Below are positions 9,635 through 24,103 of a stretch of DNA of 33,132 nt, one piece after another. This DNA comes from a virus (Duplodnaviria > Caudoviricetes). The stretch lies in the IMG/VR virus record IMGVR_UViG_3300012987_000016, positions 1 through 33,132 of that record, one strand, 5' to 3'. Below the pieces are notes generated by a model that was not told the origin of the DNA, did no database searches, and was given only the letters and a program-made list of their open reading frames with translations. Position numbers and translations under genes: made by a program. The stretch's first letter is position 1. Every line of letters begins with the position of its first letter.

Positions 9635-9639
9635 GAGAG

Positions 9640-9712
9640 CGCGTCATGAGCGATTCGAACGCCCGTTTATCGGACTAGAATTCCGATGCCTCATCCTCTC
9701 GGCCAATGACGC
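9640..9712 (-). tRNA. tRNA-Arg(UCU), no encoded CCA, atypical A32/G38
   Basis: Cloverleaf: acceptor GCGTCAT/ATGACGC, anticodon stem TCGGA/TCCGA with loop ATTCTAG, T arm GGGCG-TTCGAAT-CGCTC; A20 after the D-loop GG fits Arg identity. Confidence 0.82.
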
Positions 9713-9720
9713 ATTGAAAC

Positions 9721-9808
9721 TGGCGGTGAATGCAGGATTCGAACCTGCGCAACCTTTCGATTGGACGGTTTAGCAAACCGCTGCCTTCGGCCTCTCAGCC
9801 AATTCACC
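9721..9808 (-). tRNA. tRNA-Ser(GCU) with long variable arm and encoded CCA
   Basis: GGTGAAT/ATTCACC acceptor, GCGGT-TTGCTAA-ACCGT anticodon arm, variable arm CAATC-GAAA-GGTTG, TTCGAAT loop, 3' GCCA. Confidence 0.93.
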
Positions 9809-15045: not shown

Positions 15046-15503
15046 TTTGTCACCTCATTTGGGTTAGCGTGAAACTCAACTCCTAGATTGGCTCCGAAGG
15101 CATAGACTTGCTCCAAATACCATGCAAAGCCTTTGACCGTGAGCAGCGTTGTACTTCCGATTAGAACGCGGTCGCCTTTCGGAGTAAATGTCCACTTCTG
15201 ATAGCCCTCACGGCAGTAATCAGGATTGAAGTCTTCAGGCAGAAATTCTCGTTTAAAGAGTTCTGCCCACGCCTCAGCGCTGAACTTCTTCCCGTCAATC
15301 CATGCTTGTTCTGAGATGTCCTTGAGCGGTCCGGCCCACATAAGCGCATTCTGATCTGGCTTGCGTGGCGGCTTGTAATCGCTCACAACGACCTGTAAAG
15401 GTTCATCGGCATCCATTGGAAGATTGCCGATCAAAGCCAATGCACGCTGACGCTGTTCTTCTGCTCGCAGCACGATAATGCGCTTTTCGAATGGTTGCCT
15501 CAT
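15042..15503 (-). CDS. ninB: NinB/Orf family recombination protein
   Basis: R-PDQNALMWA-L-DISEQ...GKKFSAEAW, GSTT-L-VK-FA-YLEQVYAFGA. Confidence 0.88.
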   Translation of the reverse strand: MRQPFEKRIIVLRAEEQRQRALALIGNLPMDADEPLQVVVSDYKPPRKPDQNALMWAGPLKDISEQAWIDGKKFSAEAWAELFKREFLPEDFNPDYCREGYQKWTFTPKGDRVLIGSTTLLTVKGFAWYLEQVYAFGANLGVEFHANPNEVTK

Positions 15504-15712
15504 TTCCGAATCCTCACGTAGACTGGGCGCCGTTCGACCTTTTCAAAGCCAGCATCTTTAAGCATCTTTTCGTTCGGCTCGCGGTCACCGCTGACCACAT
15601 AGGACACGAATGCTTTAGAGCATCCCCAATGCTTGGCTGCTTCTGTCTGGGTCTTGTACTTTCGTGCGATGAATGCTCGCATTTCCTCTTGGATGTCTAC
15701 TGGCTTGCTCAT
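15500..15712 (-). CDS. Cro-like XRE HTH regulator
   Basis: TQTEAAKHWGCSKAFVSYVVSGDREP; first gene of the leftward operon; RBS AAGGAG. Confidence 0.85.
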   Translation of the reverse strand: MSKPVDIQEEMRAFIARKYKTQTEAAKHWGCSKAFVSYVVSGDREPNEKMLKDAGFEKVERRPVYVRIRK

Positions 15713-15736
15713 CTAGTTCTCCTTATCGATGGCTAG

Positions 15737-15770
15737 ATTATTGCCCATATAGATAACTTGTGCAAGTTAT
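15737..15770 (-). promoter_or_regulatory. Leftward promoter TTGCAC-17-AATAAT with palindromic operator over the -35
   Basis: ATAACTTG-TG-CAAGTTAT at 15753-15770 is a perfect 8-bp inverted repeat. Confidence 0.7.
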
Positions 15771-15789
15771 TTTTGTTGACGTAGATCGG

Positions 15790-15818
15790 TTGACACGAAG
15801 ATTTCTTTGGGCTATGAT
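15790..15818 (+). promoter_or_regulatory. Strong rightward early promoter TTGACA-17-TATGAT
   Basis: Consensus -35 and a one-mismatch -10. Confidence 0.85.
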
Positions 15819-15864
15819 TCATCCATCAGCAGCGCATCCTGCGTTGCAACTAACGGAGAAGAAG

Positions 15865-15972
15865 ATGAACAAAAAAATCCCCACGAAACGCAGCATCCCG
15901 GCCAGCATCTGGCTCATCATGCTGATCGTTGCTGGCTCTGTAGCTGGCTGGGCAGTGATGGCATGGGCGTGA
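15865..15972 (+). CDS. Small membrane peptide (35 aa, MNKKIPTKRSIPASIWLIMLIV...)
   Basis: RBS GGAG; first ORF after the early promoter. Confidence 0.6.
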   Translation: MNKKIPTKRSIPASIWLIMLIVAGSVAGWAVMAWA

Positions 15973-16175
15973 TTCAAGAGCGCCAGGATCGCGTAGCCGA
16001 GGAATCAGAAGCGACTTGGTATGAAGCCCTTTGCCTCGCACGCTGGTTCGCATGGAACGAGTATCAAGAACAGTTCGGGCCAGAAGCTCAGATGGCGTTT
16101 TCGCTGACTAATCTGAGGTTCGATCCGAACTCGCATGAAATTTTTTGCGAAGCCGATAGACTTCTGCATGGTTAG
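15963..16175 (+). CDS. Hypothetical early protein (70 aa, MGVIQERQ...)
   Basis: Overlaps the previous stop; acidic/aromatic composition. Confidence 0.55.
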   Translation: MGVIQERQDRVAEESEATWYEALCLARWFAWNEYQEQFGPEAQMAFSLTNLRFDPNSHEIFCEADRLLHG

Positions 16176-16186
16176 CAACAAAGTGC

Positions 16187-16215
16187 TTGCAGTCAAGTTT
16201 GCCGTACTGCATAAT
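16187..16215 (+). promoter_or_regulatory. Sigma70-like promoter TTGCAG-17-CATAAT
   Basis: 17-nt spacer; predicted start near 16222 coincides with the first paired base of the RNA structure. Confidence 0.65.
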
Positions 16216-16221
16216 CTGTCC

Positions 16222-16612
16222 CATCTATGTGACGGCGTAGATGTTCAGCAGCGAATCAGAGGTCTTGATTCTCTTCTTTCTAGGGTTAAATCCCAACTAG
16301 CCGTCACTAGGAAAGCAGAGAATCAAGACCTTTTTTGCTTTCTACGCATCGCATAGATCGTGCTCCACACGATAGACAGGGGACTTAGTGCTACCCGCGT
16401 GGAAGGAATGGCATGCGCTTACTGGCAAGACGGCGCAGCGAGCATTTAACGGTGACTCGCACGAACAGGCAAATGGGTTGATGGTACGTTGGCCGCGATA
16501 AGGCGCCTGGAAGAAGAAACGTTAGCTTATGGCAGTAGTAGTGTAAGCGAGTAGTCTTTGACTTACATGGCTAGAGAGCGGGATATCAAACCCTCTTGTC
16601 TTGCCTATTCTC
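16222..16612 (+). ncRNA. Large structured non-coding RNA or leader (~390 nt)
   Basis: No credible ORF; nested long-range pairings (see findings). Confidence 0.7.
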
Positions 16613-16623
16613 TGGAGAAAAGA

Positions 16624-16848
16624 ATGAAAAGTATTGTTGTATTAGCGGCGGCCATTTTACTTGCTGCTTGTGATGAGCGAAAGGCTGAGCAACTTGGTCA
16701 GCATACAGTGCAAGTAACTACTGACGGTTATTCAGCATCTGTAAGGATGATTACTACCACTGATGGAACTCGGTGTGCGATCCTGGTTGGTCTTGAACGA
16801 GGCGGAATAACCTGCGACTGGGAAGGAACTCGAAAGGAAAAGCAATGA
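16624..16848 (+). CDS. Small lipoprotein (74 aa)
   Basis: RBS GGAG; MKSIVVLAAAILLAAC lipobox; GTRCA...GGITCDW. Confidence 0.8.
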   Translation: MKSIVVLAAAILLAACDERKAEQLGQHTVQVTTDGYSASVRMITTTDGTRCAILVGLERGGITCDWEGTRKEKQ

Positions 16849-17048
16849 CTCTCACTGAACTACAGCAAGTAAAGAAAGACATCGACAACAATGTGATCGT
16901 GAGCAAAACTGTTTGGCTGAAAGTGCTGGAAACAGCAATTGAGTTCTATCCAGAGAAACAGAGGCAATCTGCCGAAAATGGGTTCATGCAGGCTCCAACA
17001 TGGAAGCCTTCCCCTACGATGCTTCTTCGTTCGGAGGAAGGAGAATGA
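16845..17048 (+). CDS. Hypothetical protein (67 aa)
   Basis: ATGA-coupled; RBS AAGGA. Confidence 0.6.
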   Translation: MTLTELQQVKKDIDNNVIVSKTVWLKVLETAIEFYPEKQRQSAENGFMQAPTWKPSPTMLLRSEEGE

Positions 17049-17158
17049 TACAGATTCTTCCAATCGATGAAGCCCGTAAGCGCCAGCATCATCAAGAATA
17101 GTTGTACAATCCAATCCCCAACCCTAACGCTGCCATAGTCGCAGCAGAAAGGCATCAA

Positions 17159-17923
17159 ATGAGCAACGCTCTCGTAGTAAAGCAAGTCAACCAGCTCGCA
17201 GAACAATTCGGCATTCCTGAGTCAGATGACCTAACGGTCGTTCTGAAATCCACCGCATTTAAAGGCAATGTCAGTGATGCGCAGATGTCGGCTTTGTTGA
17301 TCGTCGCCCAGCAGTATGGACTTAATCCCTGGACGAAGGAGATTTACGCTTTCCCAGACCAAAACAACGGCATCGTTCCCGTAGTCGGCGTCGATGGTTG
17401 GTCACGAATCATCAACTCCCATCCCCAGTTCGACGGTATGGATTTTGAGCAGGATGACGAATCATGCACCTGCATCATGTACCGCAAAGACCGCTCGCAT
17501 CCTGTTCGTGTGACAGAGTACATGAGCGAGTGCAAGCGCGCCGTGAAGCCGTGGCAGAGCCACCCTAAGCGCATGCTCCGCCATAAGGCCATGATTCAGT
17601 GCGCGCGATTAGCTTTCGGTTATGTCGGTATCTTTGATCTGGACGAAGCCGAACGAATCATCGAAGTGAATCCAGCGCCAGTTCGACAGACACGTCGAAC
17701 TGCTGCGGACATCGCCGAAGCAACCACGGTTGAATTTACGGCCGAACACGCTGATATCCTAGCCCACCTTGAAGAAGTCGCAGATACAGGCTTGGCTAAC
17801 CTGGAAACTGCATGGGGAGCCATCACCGAAGAACAGCGATCTGCGCTTATTCCAAGCATGAAGATGCTGAAACAGCGTGCCGATGCAGCCGACAAAAAAG
17901 GACAAGGTGACGTCAATGCTTGA
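17159..17923 (+). CDS. bet: Red-beta single-strand annealing recombinase
   Basis: LIVAQQYGLNPWTKEIYAFP, GIVPVVGVDGWSRIIN, PWQSHPKRMLRHKAMIQCARLAFG match lambda Bet; start MSNAL preferred. Confidence 0.95.
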   Translation: MSNALVVKQVNQLAEQFGIPESDDLTVVLKSTAFKGNVSDAQMSALLIVAQQYGLNPWTKEIYAFPDQNNGIVPVVGVDGWSRIINSHPQFDGMDFEQDDESCTCIMYRKDRSHPVRVTEYMSECKRAVKPWQSHPKRMLRHKAMIQCARLAFGYVGIFDLDEAERIIEVNPAPVRQTRRTAADIAEATTVEFTAEHADILAHLEEVADTGLANLETAWGAITEEQRSALIPSMKMLKQRADAADKKGQGDVNA

Positions 17924-18554
17924 GCGTGCATCTAACCAAGGCTCTGATGATTGGCTGCGTGCACGCGCAGGTCATGCTACTGCATCTCGCTTCTGCGATA
18001 TCCTTGCTGTATCAAAAAAGGATGGCAAGCCGCTCAAGGCGCGCGATGATTACCTAATGGAATTAGTAGTCGAGCAGATCACAGGAGAGGCTATATTTTC
18101 GGCCAGCAGCTACGCAATGCAATGGGGTACAGACTCAGAACCTTATGCGCGTGCCGCTTACGAACGAACAACCGGCTCTCTGGTGCGCGAAATTGGCTTC
18201 GTAAAACACAAGACGCACGCATGGGTCGGCGCATCCTCTGATGGCCTGGTGGGTGCTTCTGGCGGCATCGAAATTAAGTGCCCATTTAACAGTGCAGTTC
18301 ATCTTGCAACATGGGAAAGCGGCATGCCTGAGCATCATCAGGCCCAAGTCTACGGACAGATGTGGATTCTTGATCTGGAATGGATCGACTTCTGCTCTTA
18401 TGATCCGCGCATGCTTGGAGATGGGCAGCATCTACAACTCTATCGCCAACGGATCGAACGTGATCAGAAGTACATTGATGAACTTGAAGACAAAGTTCTC
18501 AACTTCCTAGCAGAAGTCGAAGCAAAGGTTCGATTGTTCATGTCTAAGAAGTAA
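17916..18554 (+). CDS. exo: YqaJ / lambda-exonuclease family
   Basis: QGSDDWLRARAG-ATAS, MQWGTDSEP-AR, GASSDGLV, IEIKCP, DFCSYDPR. Confidence 0.93.
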   Translation: MLERASNQGSDDWLRARAGHATASRFCDILAVSKKDGKPLKARDDYLMELVVEQITGEAIFSASSYAMQWGTDSEPYARAAYERTTGSLVREIGFVKHKTHAWVGASSDGLVGASGGIEIKCPFNSAVHLATWESGMPEHHQAQVYGQMWILDLEWIDFCSYDPRMLGDGQHLQLYRQRIERDQKYIDELEDKVLNFLAEVEAKVRLFMSKK

Positions 18555-18558
18555 CCAC

Positions 18559-18586
18559 AAAAGCCGGTAGAAATATCGGCTTTTTT
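18559..18586 (+). terminator. Intrinsic (likely bidirectional) terminator
   Basis: AAAAGCCGGT-AGAAAT-ATCGGCTTTTTT. Confidence 0.85.
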
Positions 18587-18588
18587 AC

Positions 18589-18617
18589 TTGCAATCTTTG
18601 CGCGCATGATTTACCAT
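18589..18617 (+). promoter_or_regulatory. Sigma70-like promoter TTGCAA-17-TACCAT
   Basis: Immediately after the terminator; 17-nt spacer. Confidence 0.65.
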
Positions 18618-18646
18618 GTTTTTACTTACTCAACAGGGAGAACGAA

Positions 18647-18811
18647 ATGGCTGGTAAGCCAACAAAAGCAAACGAGAAAGGTGAAAAATACCTTCGCAAC
18701 AATCCTTTCGCAACGATGGAAGAGATTGCAAAGCATTGCGGTTTGAGTGTATCTGCTGTGCAAAAAGCTATTTGGTGGAAAACGCGTTTCGCTAAGGAGG
18801 CAAAGAAATGA
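18647..18811 (+). CDS. Small HTH protein (54 aa); absent from the ORF track
   Basis: RBS GGGAG; MAGKPTKANEKGEKYLRNNPFATMEEIAKHCGLSVSAVQKAIWWKTRFAKEAKK; ATGA-coupled to the next gene. Confidence 0.8.
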   Translation: MAGKPTKANEKGEKYLRNNPFATMEEIAKHCGLSVSAVQKAIWWKTRFAKEAKK

Positions 18812-19341
18812 GCTTCGACAAATACAGCGACAAGGCAGCCGAAGCAATCGCACTGATCCGCGAGTTTGCGAAAGTGGAATACTGGGACTACTTCAAAGGC
18901 GATCCTGAGCAAGCTTTGGAGGCTTTCTGCGCAATGCAGGATGCTGCAGAAGAAATGGGCCGAGTGAAAGCTGGTGAAATCGCGCAGAGCCAGCAAGCAG
19001 CCGGAGAACTGCCAGTGGTGAAGACTTGGCAGGAGCGCTTGCCACTCTGCCCATCAAAGGATGAAATGGTTGCATGCGTCCTTGCTGAGGTTGTTGACCT
19101 TCGCGCCGCTCTCCGCGCATACGGACAGCGAGCAGCAGTGCCAATCATGGACGGCAAGCACAAGCAATTCGAGGCGTGGGCAAAATCCAACGGCTATTGC
19201 GTGGACATGAAGGGGAATCAAAAAGCATACCCTTCTGCAAATACCCAGAGCGCTTGGGAAATCTGGCAAGCCGCCATCGACACCCAATACAGCGTGCCAG
19301 GGATCTCGAAAAACATCGCTGAAGGTGGCAAAGATGCTTGA
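18808..19341 (+). CDS. Mosaic early hypothetical protein
   Basis: RBS AAGGAGG; FEAWA...AWEIWQAA module. Confidence 0.7.
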   Translation: MSFDKYSDKAAEAIALIREFAKVEYWDYFKGDPEQALEAFCAMQDAAEEMGRVKAGEIAQSQQAAGELPVVKTWQERLPLCPSKDEMVACVLAEVVDLRAALRAYGQRAAVPIMDGKHKQFEAWAKSNGYCVDMKGNQKAYPSANTQSAWEIWQAAIDTQYSVPGISKNIAEGGKDA

Positions 19342-20137
19342 TCCAAAACTGAACGTGAAATTGCACGAAGAAATTTATGGCTCAATCACAAAAATTATCT
19401 TTGACCGCTATCCACGAATCAAAGGTGCACATTGCGCGTCTATCGCATACGGGATCATCGATTTCATATCGGATCGTGAAGCTGCCACCCCATCCCAGCC
19501 CCAGGACGGACAGCGAGCAGCAGTGACGCAAGAGCAGGTAGCAGAGATGCGCGCCAAAGTGCTAGAAGATCGCACCTTGCCGTCGATGACGTTCAACGAA
19601 CTGATACACAGTCAGGCGTTTAAATACACACTGGAATCGCTTGCTGATGGCGGCAACAACCCGAAGCATCGCCGTTCGCTGGTGCGCGAGGTGCGCGAGG
19701 CTATCAAGGCGTGCGCCGAGGCCCAGCGACAGGCTAGCGTGGCGGAATTGTACGGCACTGAAAAATGGATTGGCCTCGATACGGCGATGCCGGAGCCTTA
19801 CGAGGAAGTGCGGATTTTGGTGGATGGCGTAACCCGCATTGGTCGTCTGAATCACCGACGCGAATATTTCCAGCTCTGCACTTTCGCCGACAGTTGCAAG
19901 GGGCAGTACATCGCATCGTTTGACCGTGTAGCAGGCTGGCAGCCTCTTCCTACCGCCCCATCCCAGCCCCAGCAAGAAGCAGTACCGGCAGAGCCGAGCG
20001 AGCAGGAGAAGCTGCTGAAATTACTGGTCAGCCAGCACGCGAGTTCTATCCGGCGCATGTTCTGCGATGGAGTGCCTGTTGGCGCTCAATTGGTGGCCGC
20101 TATCATCCCTCAAATGGAAGGCAACAGCCATGAATAA
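19334..20137 (+). CDS. Mosaic early protein with DUF551-like module
   Basis: WIGLDTAMPE...VAGWQPLPTAP. Confidence 0.65.
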   Translation: MLDPKLNVKLHEEIYGSITKIIFDRYPRIKGAHCASIAYGIIDFISDREAATPSQPQDGQRAAVTQEQVAEMRAKVLEDRTLPSMTFNELIHSQAFKYTLESLADGGNNPKHRRSLVREVREAIKACAEAQRQASVAELYGTEKWIGLDTAMPEPYEEVRILVDGVTRIGRLNHRREYFQLCTFADSCKGQYIASFDRVAGWQPLPTAPSQPQQEAVPAEPSEQEKLLKLLVSQHASSIRRMFCDGVPVGAQLVAAIIPQMEGNSHE

Positions 20138-20336
20138 AGCTCTGGAATTTATCGACAATGTCGCTCCATACCATGACCAAACCGGCTGTGATGATGCAAA
20201 CCCAGGCTCCGAGGCGCGTTTCGCGCCGGATGACTTTGGCGGCTGCTATCGCTGCACGATCATGAGAGCCGTTGAACTGGCCGTCGAAGTAGAACGCACC
20301 GCTATTGCCATGAGTGCAGCGAAGGAGCCGTCGTGA
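20130..20336 (+). CDS. Small Cys/His protein (68 aa, MNKALEF...)
   Basis: APYHDQTGCDD...CYRC; overlaps the previous stop. Confidence 0.6.
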   Translation: MNKALEFIDNVAPYHDQTGCDDANPGSEARFAPDDFGGCYRCTIMRAVELAVEVERTAIAMSAAKEPS

Positions 20337-20710
20337 AGCCAACTATTATCCGGATCTATGGCGAGCAACATGCAGATTTTGCAGCCAGTCAGGCTGGGAA
20401 ACCATACCAGCCATGTAACGGAACTGAGGGCCTTGTTTTCACCGACGCATGGTGCGGCTCATGCGCGCGAGACAAAGCCATGAGCGAGGGCAAACCAATC
20501 GAAGAATGTGACGACGATGAGAAGTGCGACATCATCGCTCTCAGCATGGCCTACAACATTGGCGATCCTCAATACCCGAAAGCATGGGTATTCGCGCACG
20601 ACGGCCAGCCTTGCTGCACAGAGTTTGTGGAAGTCGGCCAGCCTATCCCGCCATCGCCCGATACCATGACTGGCGACCTTTTTGAATTCGCAACTGGAGT
20701 AAAGCCATGA
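20333..20710 (+). CDS. Cys-rich hypothetical protein
   Basis: YQPCNGTEG--F---WC--C motif; GTG start with AAGGAG RBS. Confidence 0.7.
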   Translation: MKPTIIRIYGEQHADFAASQAGKPYQPCNGTEGLVFTDAWCGSCARDKAMSEGKPIEECDDDEKCDIIALSMAYNIGDPQYPKAWVFAHDGQPCCTEFVEVGQPIPPSPDTMTGDLFEFATGVKP

Positions 20711-20961
20711 GCCGCGAACTGACCGACAAGTACAAGCGCATCCCGGTTTCAGATGCCATCGAGCCGCCGAGTGGCTTTTGCGAGGTCTACAAGAACTATT
20801 GGTGGTGCGTCACACCAAGCGATGAAATCCTCATGTACAAGGGCACTTCGCCGCAATGCAACATTAATCGCCAGATCGTTGACCACTTGATGCCGGAAGG
20901 CTGCACGGCGCGGCAACTGCCTGTGGTCTTCATCAAGCGCAGCCCACACGATTACGCATAA
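20707..20961 (+). CDS. Hypothetical protein (84 aa)
   Basis: ATGA-coupled; SPQCN motif. Confidence 0.65.
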   Translation: MSRELTDKYKRIPVSDAIEPPSGFCEVYKNYWWCVTPSDEILMYKGTSPQCNINRQIVDHLMPEGCTARQLPVVFIKRSPHDYA

Positions 20962-21002
20962 CCACCCCGCCTCCCACACAGAGGCGGATAAAGGAAGGAC
21001 AC

Positions 21003-21248
21003 ATGAGCAACGATGAAACTATTTGGCTCGTAGAAATAAGAGTGAAAGATTGGGTCTTCATCCCTAAACACAAGCCGCGGGTATTTGACTATGAAGAGGT
21101 GGCGGCTGGTGACGAAATCAGTGCGCGGCTGGCAGGATTCGAGCAGTTCAAACGTCGCATTCAATACGAGCCGGCGATGAAGATGAAGTTTCAGAAAGCG
21201 GCATTGGAAATACAAGACTTTTGCGCGCCCGACGCTGTTCAAATCTAA
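21003..21248 (+). CDS. Hypothetical protein (81 aa)
   Basis: RBS AAGGA. Confidence 0.6.
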   Translation: MSNDETIWLVEIRVKDWVFIPKHKPRVFDYEEVAAGDEISARLAGFEQFKRRIQYEPAMKMKFQKAALEIQDFCAPDAVQI

Positions 21249-21273
21249 CCGCCCACACCCACCAGGAATAATC

Positions 21274-22152
21274 ATGAATGCACAAGAATTGCAGAAACTG
21301 AAGGATGCGCTGGAGATTGGCCGCGACGCCGCGCACGAGGTCGCCCAGCGCTTCCATGAAGAAATGAAGGGCTACCGCGAAGCCGAGCACAAGCAGGTGG
21401 ACAAGGACGTTGCCGACATCAACGAAGCAATCGCGATGATCGAACGCACCTCTTCCGCAGGCTCTGCTGCACAAGATAGCGTCGAGGCTAGCTGGAACAT
21501 TTACGACCCAAGCGGCAGGGTCAACGACTTGCGCAAGGCGTCTAGTTGGTTGCTTGACGTTGCAAGCTCCGAGGTATCTGTTGGCGATGAATCCGAGCTT
21601 GCCAAGGCCACCGCTGCTGTAGACGACGCTCTAGCCGCTTGCATCGGCAATATTGCCGCAGGCTCTGCTGTGGTGATGAACGAAGATCAAGAGCGCCCAG
21701 CGTTTGAAGCGTGGGCACGCATCGCTTGCAACATGCCTTCGTATGCGAGCGTGAACTGGGAAGCTCTCTGGACTAAGCAAGCATGGGAAGGGTGGCAGGC
21801 ACGTGCTGTCCTTTCCGCTGCCGCAGCACAGACAGCAGCCGTACAGGCGGAGAACCAAGCATCGCAGGATGTGTTGGCCGAGCGCAAGCGCCAGATGGAA
21901 GCGGAAGGTTGGACGCCAGCGCATGACGACCAGTACCAGAACGATGAACTGTCTTTGGCTGCGGCTTGCTACACAATCGCGTCCGACACTGCGCCTCAGG
22001 CATCAATTCCCCAGATGTGGCCGTGGCCTGACTACTGGTGGAAACCTACCACCGAGCGCCGCAACCTTGTGAAAGCTGGCGCCCTTATCCTCGCTGAAAT
22101 CGAACGCTTGGACCGCGCTGCCATGTCCTCTGAAGGGGGAGCGAATGGCTGA
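21274..22152 (+). CDS. Ea22/Ead-like mosaic early protein
   Basis: DVLAERKRQ-EAEGWTPAHDD...WPW---WWKP---RRNLVKAGALILAEIERLDR C-terminal module. Confidence 0.75.
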   Translation: MNAQELQKLKDALEIGRDAAHEVAQRFHEEMKGYREAEHKQVDKDVADINEAIAMIERTSSAGSAAQDSVEASWNIYDPSGRVNDLRKASSWLLDVASSEVSVGDESELAKATAAVDDALAACIGNIAAGSAVVMNEDQERPAFEAWARIACNMPSYASVNWEALWTKQAWEGWQARAVLSAAAAQTAAVQAENQASQDVLAERKRQMEAEGWTPAHDDQYQNDELSLAAACYTIASDTAPQASIPQMWPWPDYWWKPTTERRNLVKAGALILAEIERLDRAAMSSEGGANG

Positions 22153-22438
22153 GCGATATCAAGATCGTCCGGCGCGCTCGGTGGTCTGTGCGGCGAACAA
22201 ATACGGTGACCTGGTGTTCGTCGGCGTGCGCCACTTCTGCCCGGTCATGCAGTTCAACATGCGCGGCCACGATATCCCGGCGCTGCGCAAAGAGCGCGGC
22301 GAGGTGCAAGGCTTCATCGACCAGTTCGGCGTCTTCATGGACCGGCAAGAGGCGGCGATTGTCGCCAAGGAATCAGGCCAGCTCGCGCGGTACGGTGACA
22401 CGTTCCCGACCGTTCTGTTTAGCGAAGACCTGTACTAG
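22145..22438 (+). CDS. Conserved phage hypothetical protein
   Basis: VVCAAN, GVRHF, QGFIDQFGVFMDRQEA, LFSEDLY. Confidence 0.8.
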   Translation: MAERYQDRPARSVVCAANKYGDLVFVGVRHFCPVMQFNMRGHDIPALRKERGEVQGFIDQFGVFMDRQEAAIVAKESGQLARYGDTFPTVLFSEDLY

Positions 22439-22466
22439 GCCGCCCCCACCCCACTCGGAGAGAGAG

Positions 22467-22646
22467 ATGACTGACCCGAAGAAACCCTCAAAGAAAGACA
22501 AGATCATTCTTCGTCTTACCGGCCCAGATGGGAAATATCATTTCATCTGGGGCGATGATTATGCTGGGTTTTGCCTGCAAGATGCTTTGAGCAAACTCGC
22601 TGCTCTTGAAGCAGAAGTGGCTGCAGCTAAAGGCAATGTTCAATAA
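22467..22646 (+). CDS. Hypothetical protein (59 aa, MTDPKKP...)
   Basis: RBS GGAG. Confidence 0.55.
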   Translation: MTDPKKPSKKDKIILRLTGPDGKYHFIWGDDYAGFCLQDALSKLAALEAEVAAAKGNVQ

Positions 22647-22663
22647 ATAAAGGAGCCGACTGA

Positions 22664-23542
22664 ATGAACGATACGACTAAACCCGCTGACGCGCTGGAGC
22701 CTTGCCCGTTTTGTGGTAGCGAAGCAGCTATGCAAACTCAATACGGCGTAGATTTCTGGGCACAGTGCATGAATCCAGAATGCGGCTGCACAAATGGAAA
22801 AGTCTATCAAGGCAGCTCACAATATGCTGCTCGTGCATGGAACCGCCGTGCACCGAAGGCAAGCGCAGTACCGGAATACGAGGCCACGTTCCGCGAAGGT
22901 GTCACCGCATTGGTGATGCGCCACATCGACCGCATGAACGACATCTGCGATGAAGATCCAGCCGAGCGCATCATCGTGAGCTTCATTAAAGGCTTTGACC
23001 CGCTGCGTGACGCTTACTGGGCCGAGAAATTCCCTGGCCGCGATATCGCCGCTGCACCACAAGCAGAGGAAGCGCCAGCCGTACCGACCGTTGAAGAATT
23101 CCTAGCGCGCCTGTTGCCACCGCCTGGCTATGAAGGCCACAAGGTCATAGAGCGGGAAGGAAAGCTGATGTTCTGTAAGCCGGAAGATATTCGGCCAGAT
23201 GACGGCCTGTGCTTCTACGACGGCGACATGCGAACCGTTGCCATTCCGGAGTGCGTACAGCCAAGCGTCGCAAATGACCCTGAATTCATCCAGCTTGTGG
23301 ATAATATCGGCTACGCCTACAGGGATGCTGGCGATACTGACGAAGAGGGGAAAACAGCGGCGCTGGTCGCATTCTTCGACGCCAAGCTGACCCAGGCCCG
23401 TCTTGAAGCAGTTCGATCCGCCGACAACTTCAGGCAATTGGTATCCGACAGCGATAGTGCAGAAATCAAGGAATGGAAGACTCGCTGTTTCGCCGCTGAA
23501 GAGAAGCTGGCCAGCATACAGGCGATGCTAGACAAAGAGTAA
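22664..23542 (+). CDS. Lar-family (restriction alleviation) zinc-finger N-terminus fused to mosaic modules
   Basis: LEPCPFCG...C---C...AARAWNRRA. Confidence 0.75.
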   Translation: MNDTTKPADALEPCPFCGSEAAMQTQYGVDFWAQCMNPECGCTNGKVYQGSSQYAARAWNRRAPKASAVPEYEATFREGVTALVMRHIDRMNDICDEDPAERIIVSFIKGFDPLRDAYWAEKFPGRDIAAAPQAEEAPAVPTVEEFLARLLPPPGYEGHKVIEREGKLMFCKPEDIRPDDGLCFYDGDMRTVAIPECVQPSVANDPEFIQLVDNIGYAYRDAGDTDEEGKTAALVAFFDAKLTQARLEAVRSADNFRQLVSDSDSAEIKEWKTRCFAAEEKLASIQAMLDKE

Positions 23543-23603
23543 GGAATTGTGTTTTAGTAATACCGTCCTGGCGGTTCCAGGTTAAAACTAGGGAGCTTTA
23601 CAA

Positions 23604-24059
23604 ATGAAGAAGGCAATTTTTGCAGTATTTGCAGCACTGACTATGATGGCGACTTTTGGCGTTTCTCAAGCCGCTACTCTGTCTCAGAATTTCACCGATA
23701 TCAACGGTACTAACTTCTCTGTTGAGAATGCCGTACGCGTGAAGAAGGTTACCAACGGCATCACTGTGACCAAAGCGACTGTCGATAACACCGGCACAAC
23801 CGTGTTCACTTCGCGTGCTTACGTGGACAACTCTTCCGGTCTGATCTGGGGCAAGTTCGTTTCCATGGCTAGTTCTACTGGCCTGTTTCTGCAGATTGGC
23901 TCGACTACTGAATACGTTGGCGCAGAAGCTCCAGTCGAAACACGTTGCTTTAGCCCATCCACCCAGCTTTTCTATCAAATTGGTTCTGTCCAATATGTAG
24001 ATAGCATCAATGACGGCTGCGTGATCTGGCAGGGTATCAAGGCAATTTCCAATCCTTGA
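23604..24059 (+). CDS. Secreted/periplasmic beta-rich protein
   Basis: Signal peptide MKKAIFAVFAALTMMATFGVSQA; two Cys; RBS GGGAG. Confidence 0.75.
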   Translation: MKKAIFAVFAALTMMATFGVSQAATLSQNFTDINGTNFSVENAVRVKKVTNGITVTKATVDNTGTTVFTSRAYVDNSSGLIWGKFVSMASSTGLFLQIGSTTEYVGAEAPVETRCFSPSTQLFYQIGSVQYVDSINDGCVIWQGIKAISNP

Positions 24060-24076
24060 TCGTCATCGCATAAGAG

Positions 24077-24103
24077 AAAGCCCGCTTTCTGCGGGCTTTT
24101 TTT
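24077..24103. terminator. Terminator between the convergent early and late operons
   Basis: AAAGCCCGC-TTTCT-GCGGGCTTTTTTT. Confidence 0.88.

Follow-up and report, generated by a model that had tools for sequence, protein, structure and literature searches.

HK022 put RNAs and EAR are processive antiterminator RNAs. Among the systems nearest to the locus studied here, C4 (RF01695) and P4 CI are grouped with Gifsy-1 IsrK. A target hairpin is visible in rows of the published alignments of c4-a1b1 and C4 (PMC2864571), and passages on P4 CI describe premature termination via pairing with seqA and seqC of its own leader (PMC4825925). In the 2010 table of the alignment study, c4-a1b1 stands without an Rfam number (PMC2864571), so a blank Rfam result is no test of that motif. 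Here we analyse a soil phage record of 33.1 kb (the whole stretch is referred to as the window; estimated completeness 87%) and describe in it a real non-coding cassette with two separable modules, a leader (16222–16358) and a cargo (16359–16605).

Results

Genome setting of the cassette

In the window, the portal, terminase and capsid genes occupy the minus strand, a cro-like helix-turn-helix (HTH) gene and ninB run leftward from 15712, and bet and the exonuclease gene form a rightward operon with a strong predicted promoter at its start (15790–15818, + strand; sigma70-like, 11/12). The cassette lies inside this operon, between orf68 (15969–16175, +; homologues at 85–88% in L215–L217), which flanks the slot on its upstream side, and a predicted lipoprotein of small size with a lipobox-like LAAC (16624–16848, +; phrog_3641, E 6e-5; two homologues). 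The PHROG scan and locus comparison place orf67 (16845–17048, +), followed by bet and exonuclease, as the downstream flank. The lipoprotein gene directly follows the RNA in one of 11 carriers, the window itself. Transcripts from the promoter at 15790–15818, upstream of the cassette, would by inference enter the leader terminator too.

The original prediction put the feature near where cI or N would sit. This is borne out for position only, as neither a tyrosine integrase nor an S24 repressor domain was detected in any of five carrier records including the window (two complete; G003 and G004 partial). N- or Q-like proteins gave no match among 57 window ORFs scanned with the best five families per protein, and no antirepressor appeared among the PHROG matches of ORFs downstream of the cassette.

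Other elements of the window deserve mention. Divergent promoters lie next to the single cro-like HTH gene (15500–15818). A conserved hairpin at 17127–17160, immediately 5′ of the bet ribosome-binding site and similar in L002–L008 and L016, is a possible translational control element. A Lar-like restriction alleviation domain (22664–23542, +) is encoded within the same early operon as the cassette. Rfam returned two tRNAs only over the window, tRNA-Arg(TCT) at 9639–9712 (−) and tRNA-Ser(GCT) at 9721–9808 (−), both with ordinary anticodons.

The predicted cassette promoter, TTGCAG-17-CATAAT (16187–16215, +; predicted start near 16222), gives an 8/12 match and falls under the promoter scanner's cut-off, while sites of at least 8/12 occur upstream of 23 of 33 related leaders, compared with 6.6% of random windows. 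Contigs in runs X5 and X7 match the window from 16222 onward and diverge upstream. The expectation that the region lacks a credible ORF was sustained: a 73-codon ORF over domain 1 of the original prediction had no PHROG match, and a conserved small ORF in the cargo was rejected, none being kept across 11 cargo sequences.

The leader is a predicted terminator with a covarying X/X′ pair

Domain 1 folds far beyond chance, with a minimum free energy (MFE) of −63.6 kcal/mol compared with −30.4 ± 3.7 for shuffled sequences (z −9.0; 0 of 100 shuffles as good). All complementary segments named in the original prediction, for this and the other domains, are present about where they had been placed. On the + strand, a 5′ hairpin, HP1 (16223–16242, −7.5 kcal/mol), displays the target X (16229–16236) in its loop, as do most leaders. 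A 17-nt linker separates HP1 from a long terminator-like hairpin (16260–16337) which, in fold predictions, has ~19 bp, a three-way-junction cap and a U run at 16331–16337. Hairpin B (16297–16310) carries in its loop X′ (16300–16307), which is complementary to X (X:X′ duplex, −13.9 kcal/mol). Finally, a post-terminator arm (16341–16358) pairs back onto HP1 in the read-through RNA, as judged from predicted folds and leader comparison.

For comparison, we assembled 26 leaders of Betaproteobacteria-1 type (RF02932), nine cargo leaders and that of L046, 36 in all, of which 33 remained below 90% identity. A leader was defined by a terminator rod upstream; the longer leader of L228 escaped this rule and was spotted separately, and the L232 cargo has no leader. 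When the 3′ half of each hairpin was compared with its own upstream 45 nt, 30/33 non-redundant leaders, but only 99/1056 swapped pairs, showed a perfect X/X′ match spanning 7 nt or more, in altered sequence. The alternative pairing proposed for domain 1 is thus confirmed by covariation. For the post-terminator arm, matches of 7 nt or longer occur in 10/33 leaders versus 70/1056 swapped pairs, and L211, L216 and L217, as well as runs X5 and X7, hold a nearly full second copy of X′ in this arm. Leader designs like that of the window, with changed letters, occur in L003 and L004, among 86 loci around bet/ninB relatives. Leader stems span 16–30 bp, and in many leaders X is merely 7–17 nt from the stem base.

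In L209, L213 and L251 the cargo is 98% identical, whereas the leaders share only 59–64% identity; leader turnover is therefore much faster than that of the cargo, which fits a specificity code. In a crude scan of the + strand from 15800 to 24100, the leader hairpin was the sole hairpin of −10 kcal/mol or below before a U run. As the sole strong intrinsic terminator there, it would gate bet and exo too.

No Rfam family covers the leader in the window or 20 further loci, and weak miRNA-type matches over domain 1 (E 1.8–8) were set aside as chance. The same leader type precedes other, unassigned structured-looking sequence in L046 (2735–2856) and in L090 (~255 nt upstream of an RF02932 core). 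Near a ninB relative, L082 (6125–6199) has a long terminator rod of another kind, whose junction bears two hairpins.

The cargo is a single multi-junction RNA

Exact and loosened pattern scans recovered ten distinct cargo homologues, seven at 76–85% and three at 57–60% identity. Conservation begins at 16359 and stops at 16605, which moves the end of the element from the 16610 first proposed. L210 and 16 of 24 loci from the loosened scan proved to be chance matches and six more were repeats of known contigs; a pattern scan of genome contigs gave two matches, both chance. Blastn returned no match for the region, L255 or L003 against named phages, or for the cargo against plasmids.

Folding better than shuffles, clear for domain 1, did not extend to the remainder of the feature: single-sequence z scores were −0.7 for domain 2, −0.8 for domain 3 and −0.2 for both together. 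With values this near zero, single-sequence folding would dismiss these domains, and it was the homologues that decided. Across the alignment, a 52-pair structure is paired in 95.2% of 559 cells, compared with 33–45% for slid-partner controls. Two-sided change was seen in 23 of the 52 pairs (shuffles 7.2 ± 2.1; 0/500 reach this count), and the consensus alignment energy gave z −7.1 against column shuffles. These pair counts lean in favour of the structure, since eight of the 11 aligned sequences are closely related and this same alignment served to choose the helices; the invariance of search-pattern bases was selected and carries no evidential weight. P3, P4 and P5, derived from seven close sequences, were also maintained, by way of compensatory changes, in L232 and L228, both of which were retrieved with a pattern leaving these stems free. 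Collectively, the cargo is almost certainly a conserved structured RNA, and the proposal of a structured RNA of ~250 nt without an Rfam family after an attenuator-like leader is supported.

The fold itself differs from that originally drawn. The 5′ domain (16359–16417, +) comprises P1 (16359–62/16414–17), with one-sided changes only, P2 (16364–67/16400–03), inner helices and an A-rich bulge. The main domain (16424–16605, +) is closed by the long-range helix P3 (16424–31/16598–605), and domains 2 and 3, previously regarded as separate, are therefore one unit. Within P3, the alignment supports P4 (16438–60), P5 (16466–70/16505–09) with inner hairpins, a small hairpin near 16525–33 and P6 (16536–47/16562–73); P7 (16574–97) comes from single-sequence folds only. 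Coded as 32 pairs without P4, the earlier structure is paired in 81.4% of cells, with its outer domain-2 stem broken: its CGTGC/GCACG closing helix is paired in just 60% of cells. The proposed domain-3 closing stem, with a GGCAA/TTGCC core, is 91% paired but lacks any two-sided change, and rival helices on the same bases do compensate. In addition, a 5-bp helix (16414–18/16433–37) is pairable in 11/11 sequences, never varies and competes with P1; it is possibly a pseudoknot beside P3, or a switch.

Rfam 15 ribozyme, riboswitch and intron families gave no match to the cargo in the window, eight carrier loci, L251 and L255. We found no description of either the leader or the cargo in the literature, where motif supplements of some RNA surveys could list either; motif searches in part of the supplements of PMC10690425 and PMC8632094 found neither.

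The cassette is optional and probably mobile

In eight close carriers, the cassette either directly precedes orf67 or has one gene in between, and the gene that comes next varies. It is near the start of a long operon in 8/11 carriers; L232 and L255 are not among these, and the placement of L228 is ambiguous. The slot is without the cassette in L215, L005, L002 and L001, all of which retain the operon: L005 joins orf68 straight to orf67, and L215 has a different non-coding insert. Downstream of the cargo, the carriers show at least five unrelated genes, a tRNA (8 nt away in L232) and a new promoter-like site (L255). In run X7, one low-depth contig passes from a window-type leader into different sequence. 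In 89 other loci, the cargo model gave no match. The five carrier records (G003 and G004 partial) have no protein in common, and a dedicated protein partner was rejected on this ground. A joint with the element removed was sought in eight DNA runs and did not appear, a result that says nothing about RNA. No RNA run was listed among 23 runs with the sequence, a blank without bearing on expression. A phrog_1328 search gave no matches, and its controls likewise gave none.

L215 (2701–2963) and L001 (3880–3995) share a stem and sequence that mark a third non-coding element, which sits in the slot or before bet; Rfam has no match to it.

The same leader type precedes the Betaproteobacteria-1 RNA

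In L003 and L004, RF02932 directly follows the leader (73.3 and 58.2 bits), just upstream of bet. A motif pattern scan found at least 120 loci, with at least 50 distinct RF02932-like loci among the matches listed, and Rfam confirmed 19 of 19 further loci tested. Among the matches listed, 26 of 50 RF02932-like loci have a terminator rod upstream, and the other 24 either lack one or are truncated.

The cargo is like RF02932 in being a phage-borne orphan structured RNA under the same leader type; the leaders of L255 and L228 are 79–80% identical to those of the RF02932 carriers L117 and L109, and the total sizes are near each other when a ~90-nt extension of RF02932 is counted. However, the helix layout differs, and a covarying direct repeat of RF02932 is missing from the cargo. 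Membership of the cargo in RF02932 was rejected, with no match in either direction. The RF02932 model, which scores true members at 58–103 bits, found nothing in the window (E ≤ 10), in eight carrier loci or in L251 and L255; the cargo model R1, run against 64 loci (49 RF02932-like), reached at best 10.6 bits, with no match over an RF02932 element.

The extension is conserved 3′ of the Rfam model in L092, L095, L137, L188 and others. It includes a short variable stretch that is repeated directly ~45 nt further on, in a form that differs between loci; the repeat is shared over at least 5 nt in 27/29 loci with both anchors compared with 109/812 swaps and could mark a template, a guide or a switch. 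Leaderless RF02932 copies (L089, L094, L096, L127, L129, L133, L177, L198 and L204) follow the end of a gene of primase-like appearance by eye.

Discussion

Proposed mechanism

Based on these data, we propose that the locus is a mobile, protein-free cassette, combining a kinetic attenuator and its trans feedback with an accessory, protein-binding RNA of 250 nt; taken whole, this reading has an even chance of being correct. The starting point is the covariation of X and X′ across leaders. X is predicted to capture X′ before the 3′ arm of the terminator exists, so that the hairpin is blocked and the polymerase reads through; prior occupation of X would let the more stable terminator form and yield an RNA of ~115 nt. 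For transcripts ending at 16310–16318, the X:X′ fold is the predicted MFE structure, and in a transcript ending at 16337 the terminator is ahead by ~16 kcal/mol (−47.5 vs −31.1). A terminator so much more stable means that the switch needs kinetics, and MFE snapshots can suggest such kinetics at most. X/X′ pairing very probably governs termination.

After read-through, the post-terminator arm may zip onto HP1 and liberate the loop X′. The MFE structure of a transcript ending at 16358 is the long rod, with X paired to the post-terminator arm and the X′ loop of hairpin B free. Accumulated leader RNA would then capture X on new transcripts and turn off the cassette together with bet and exo, giving an early pulse and exclusion of phages that share the X code. 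We rate such feedback in trans as about equally likely to operate or not. Cis pairing alone would also account for the X/X′ covariation, and since the post-terminator arm is clear in only 10/33 leaders, this step may hold for a subfamily.

In the cargo, covariation shows the maintenance of one multi-junction fold. The last step is the least certain: the cargo may work in trans, scaffolding a host protein or serving as a decoy for one, rather than controlling the next gene.

Function of the cargo and alternative readings

A trans-acting accessory role for the cargo is our first choice, ahead of antitermination and then catalysis. The accessory role is likely, given that the cassette is optional in relatives, the next gene varies and no protein is shared by the five records. 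An essential role in put-like antitermination or in replication, as first suggested, is argued against by the optional occurrence among close relatives and the variable next gene. The cargo lacks its own terminator, and nothing in the preferred reading accounts for its release from the mRNA, which counts against that reading. A CsrA/Rsm sponge was considered and rejected, as the GGA closing P2 changes to CCA in L228 and L255.

The strongest competitor, though a doubtful one, is that the cargo is a processive antiterminator in cis, of HK022 put, EAR or conAn2 type, which would bind RNA polymerase and protect the early operon. In the eight close carriers, its place close to the start of the bet/exo operon, without a terminator of its own, would suit such a role, as would the lack of N- or Q-like matches among the window ORFs within the scope given above; moreover, in pLS20, according to passages on that plasmid, an attenuator lies ahead of a processive antitermination system that includes an RNA component (PMC13401043). 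Yet four close relatives retain the operon without the cargo, and what comes after the cargo is a tRNA in L232 and a promoter-like site in L255. Beyond the leader there is no further strong intrinsic terminator to be overcome on the + strand at 15800–24100, in a scan for intrinsic terminators, and Rfam gave no epsC/EAR match.

A cargo that acts as a ribozyme or as a processing element, cutting the transcript, freeing itself and leaving a new 5′ end for the mRNA or tRNA, is rather improbable. The multi-junction fold with sharp ends, the possible pseudoknot or switch at 16414–18/16433–37, the mobility without a protein partner and the nearby tRNA in L232 could be understood in this way. No ribozyme or intron family of Rfam matches, however, and the invariant helix shows no covariation; the missing element-removed joint in the DNA runs also counts against it, though it is silent on RNA.

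Slightly less probable still is a leader that does not switch, in which a constitutive terminator yields a small RNA of ~115 nt with an X–X′ kiss and the cargo is made by fixed leak-through. The lead of the terminator in predicted energy accords with this scheme, and the linker in the window might allow HP1 to reach loop B with the stem intact, if the inferred geometry holds. But in many leaders X is so near the base of long stems that an intramolecular kiss would be strained, and a second X′ copy after the U run matters after read-through only. A role for the cargo as riboswitch or as translational leader of the lipoprotein or next gene is very unlikely, for although in most close carriers a ribosome-binding site lies 9–25 nt beyond the end of P3, the downstream sequences are unrelated genes, a tRNA and a promoter-like site, and the ribosome-binding site is outside the conserved fold.

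Implications

The cargo adds a new RNA family that Rfam 15 does not contain; its fold is backed by covariation and its ends are defined. The orphan motif Betaproteobacteria-1 turns out to be a phage RNA of ~210 nt, often under the same leader type, and the shared leader type makes the two orphan RNAs testable together. If the leader acts in trans, RNA immunity of C4/CI type would extend to phages without a detectable repressor or integrase, and nature would provide a set of orthogonal attenuators.

More speculatively, and with doubt outweighing belief, dozens of X/X′ keys for exclusion or timing might form an interchangeable, RNA-only leader code placed on unrelated RNAs, the cargo being a catalytic or anti-defence RNA, with no phage protein needed. 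The unrelated, ribozyme-sized RNAs in question would comprise the cargo family, Betaproteobacteria-1 and one or more others, in one early-operon slot.

Comparison with known systems

GOLLD and ROOL, multi-junction RNAs like the cargo, have no known function and occur in prophage regions and near tRNAs (PMC5737381). They are much larger than the cargo, for which Rfam has no match, and the passages on them mention no comparable leader (PMC5737381).

The leader is reminiscent of pLS20 cATT/conAn, where, according to the passages on that system, a weak upstream hairpin is complementary to the terminator region and an attenuator precedes a long operon and a structured RNA (PMC13401043). There, however, the partner is the terminator's 5′ stem plus loop, zipped through an intervening long stem, and the ConAn1 protein is needed (PMC13401043), whereas no partner gene travels with the window cassette. 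Here the match is a short loop–loop one, with X′ in the junction atop the terminator and no intervening stem.

The closest resemblance is to C4 and CI, and the likeness to the c4-a1b1 leaders of P1 and P4 noted in the original prediction is supported. Both have a three-way junction on a closing stem and a target in an upstream hairpin loop, here with the X/X′ matches of 30/33 leaders against 99/1056 swaps. Pairing within the leader's own RNA to control termination, as predicted here, is shared with P4 CI. A second pair, nested in the C4 a/b order, occurs in 11/33 leaders, and several leaders use a GUGGAA/UUCCAC pair present in the published alignment rows (PMC2864571).

The differences are equally clear. 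There is no RF01695 match in the window or 20 loci, nor in any of the five records at E ≤ 1, where the controls also stayed below the cut-off. The window leader has a single X/X′ pair. A downstream a2/b2 or seqC target is missing, matches of at least 6 nt being found in 9/30 own and 269/870 swapped comparisons; a C4-like a2/b2 pairing of loops A and B with 16444–50 and 16429–34 was rejected, as these matches stay fixed while the leader loops change. Unlike in C4/CI, the leader would gate a non-coding RNA rather than an antirepressor, in carriers without an integrase or S24 repressor, and its closing stem doubles as a terminator of 16–30 bp. The leader is built like a C4/CI module without being a member of that family.
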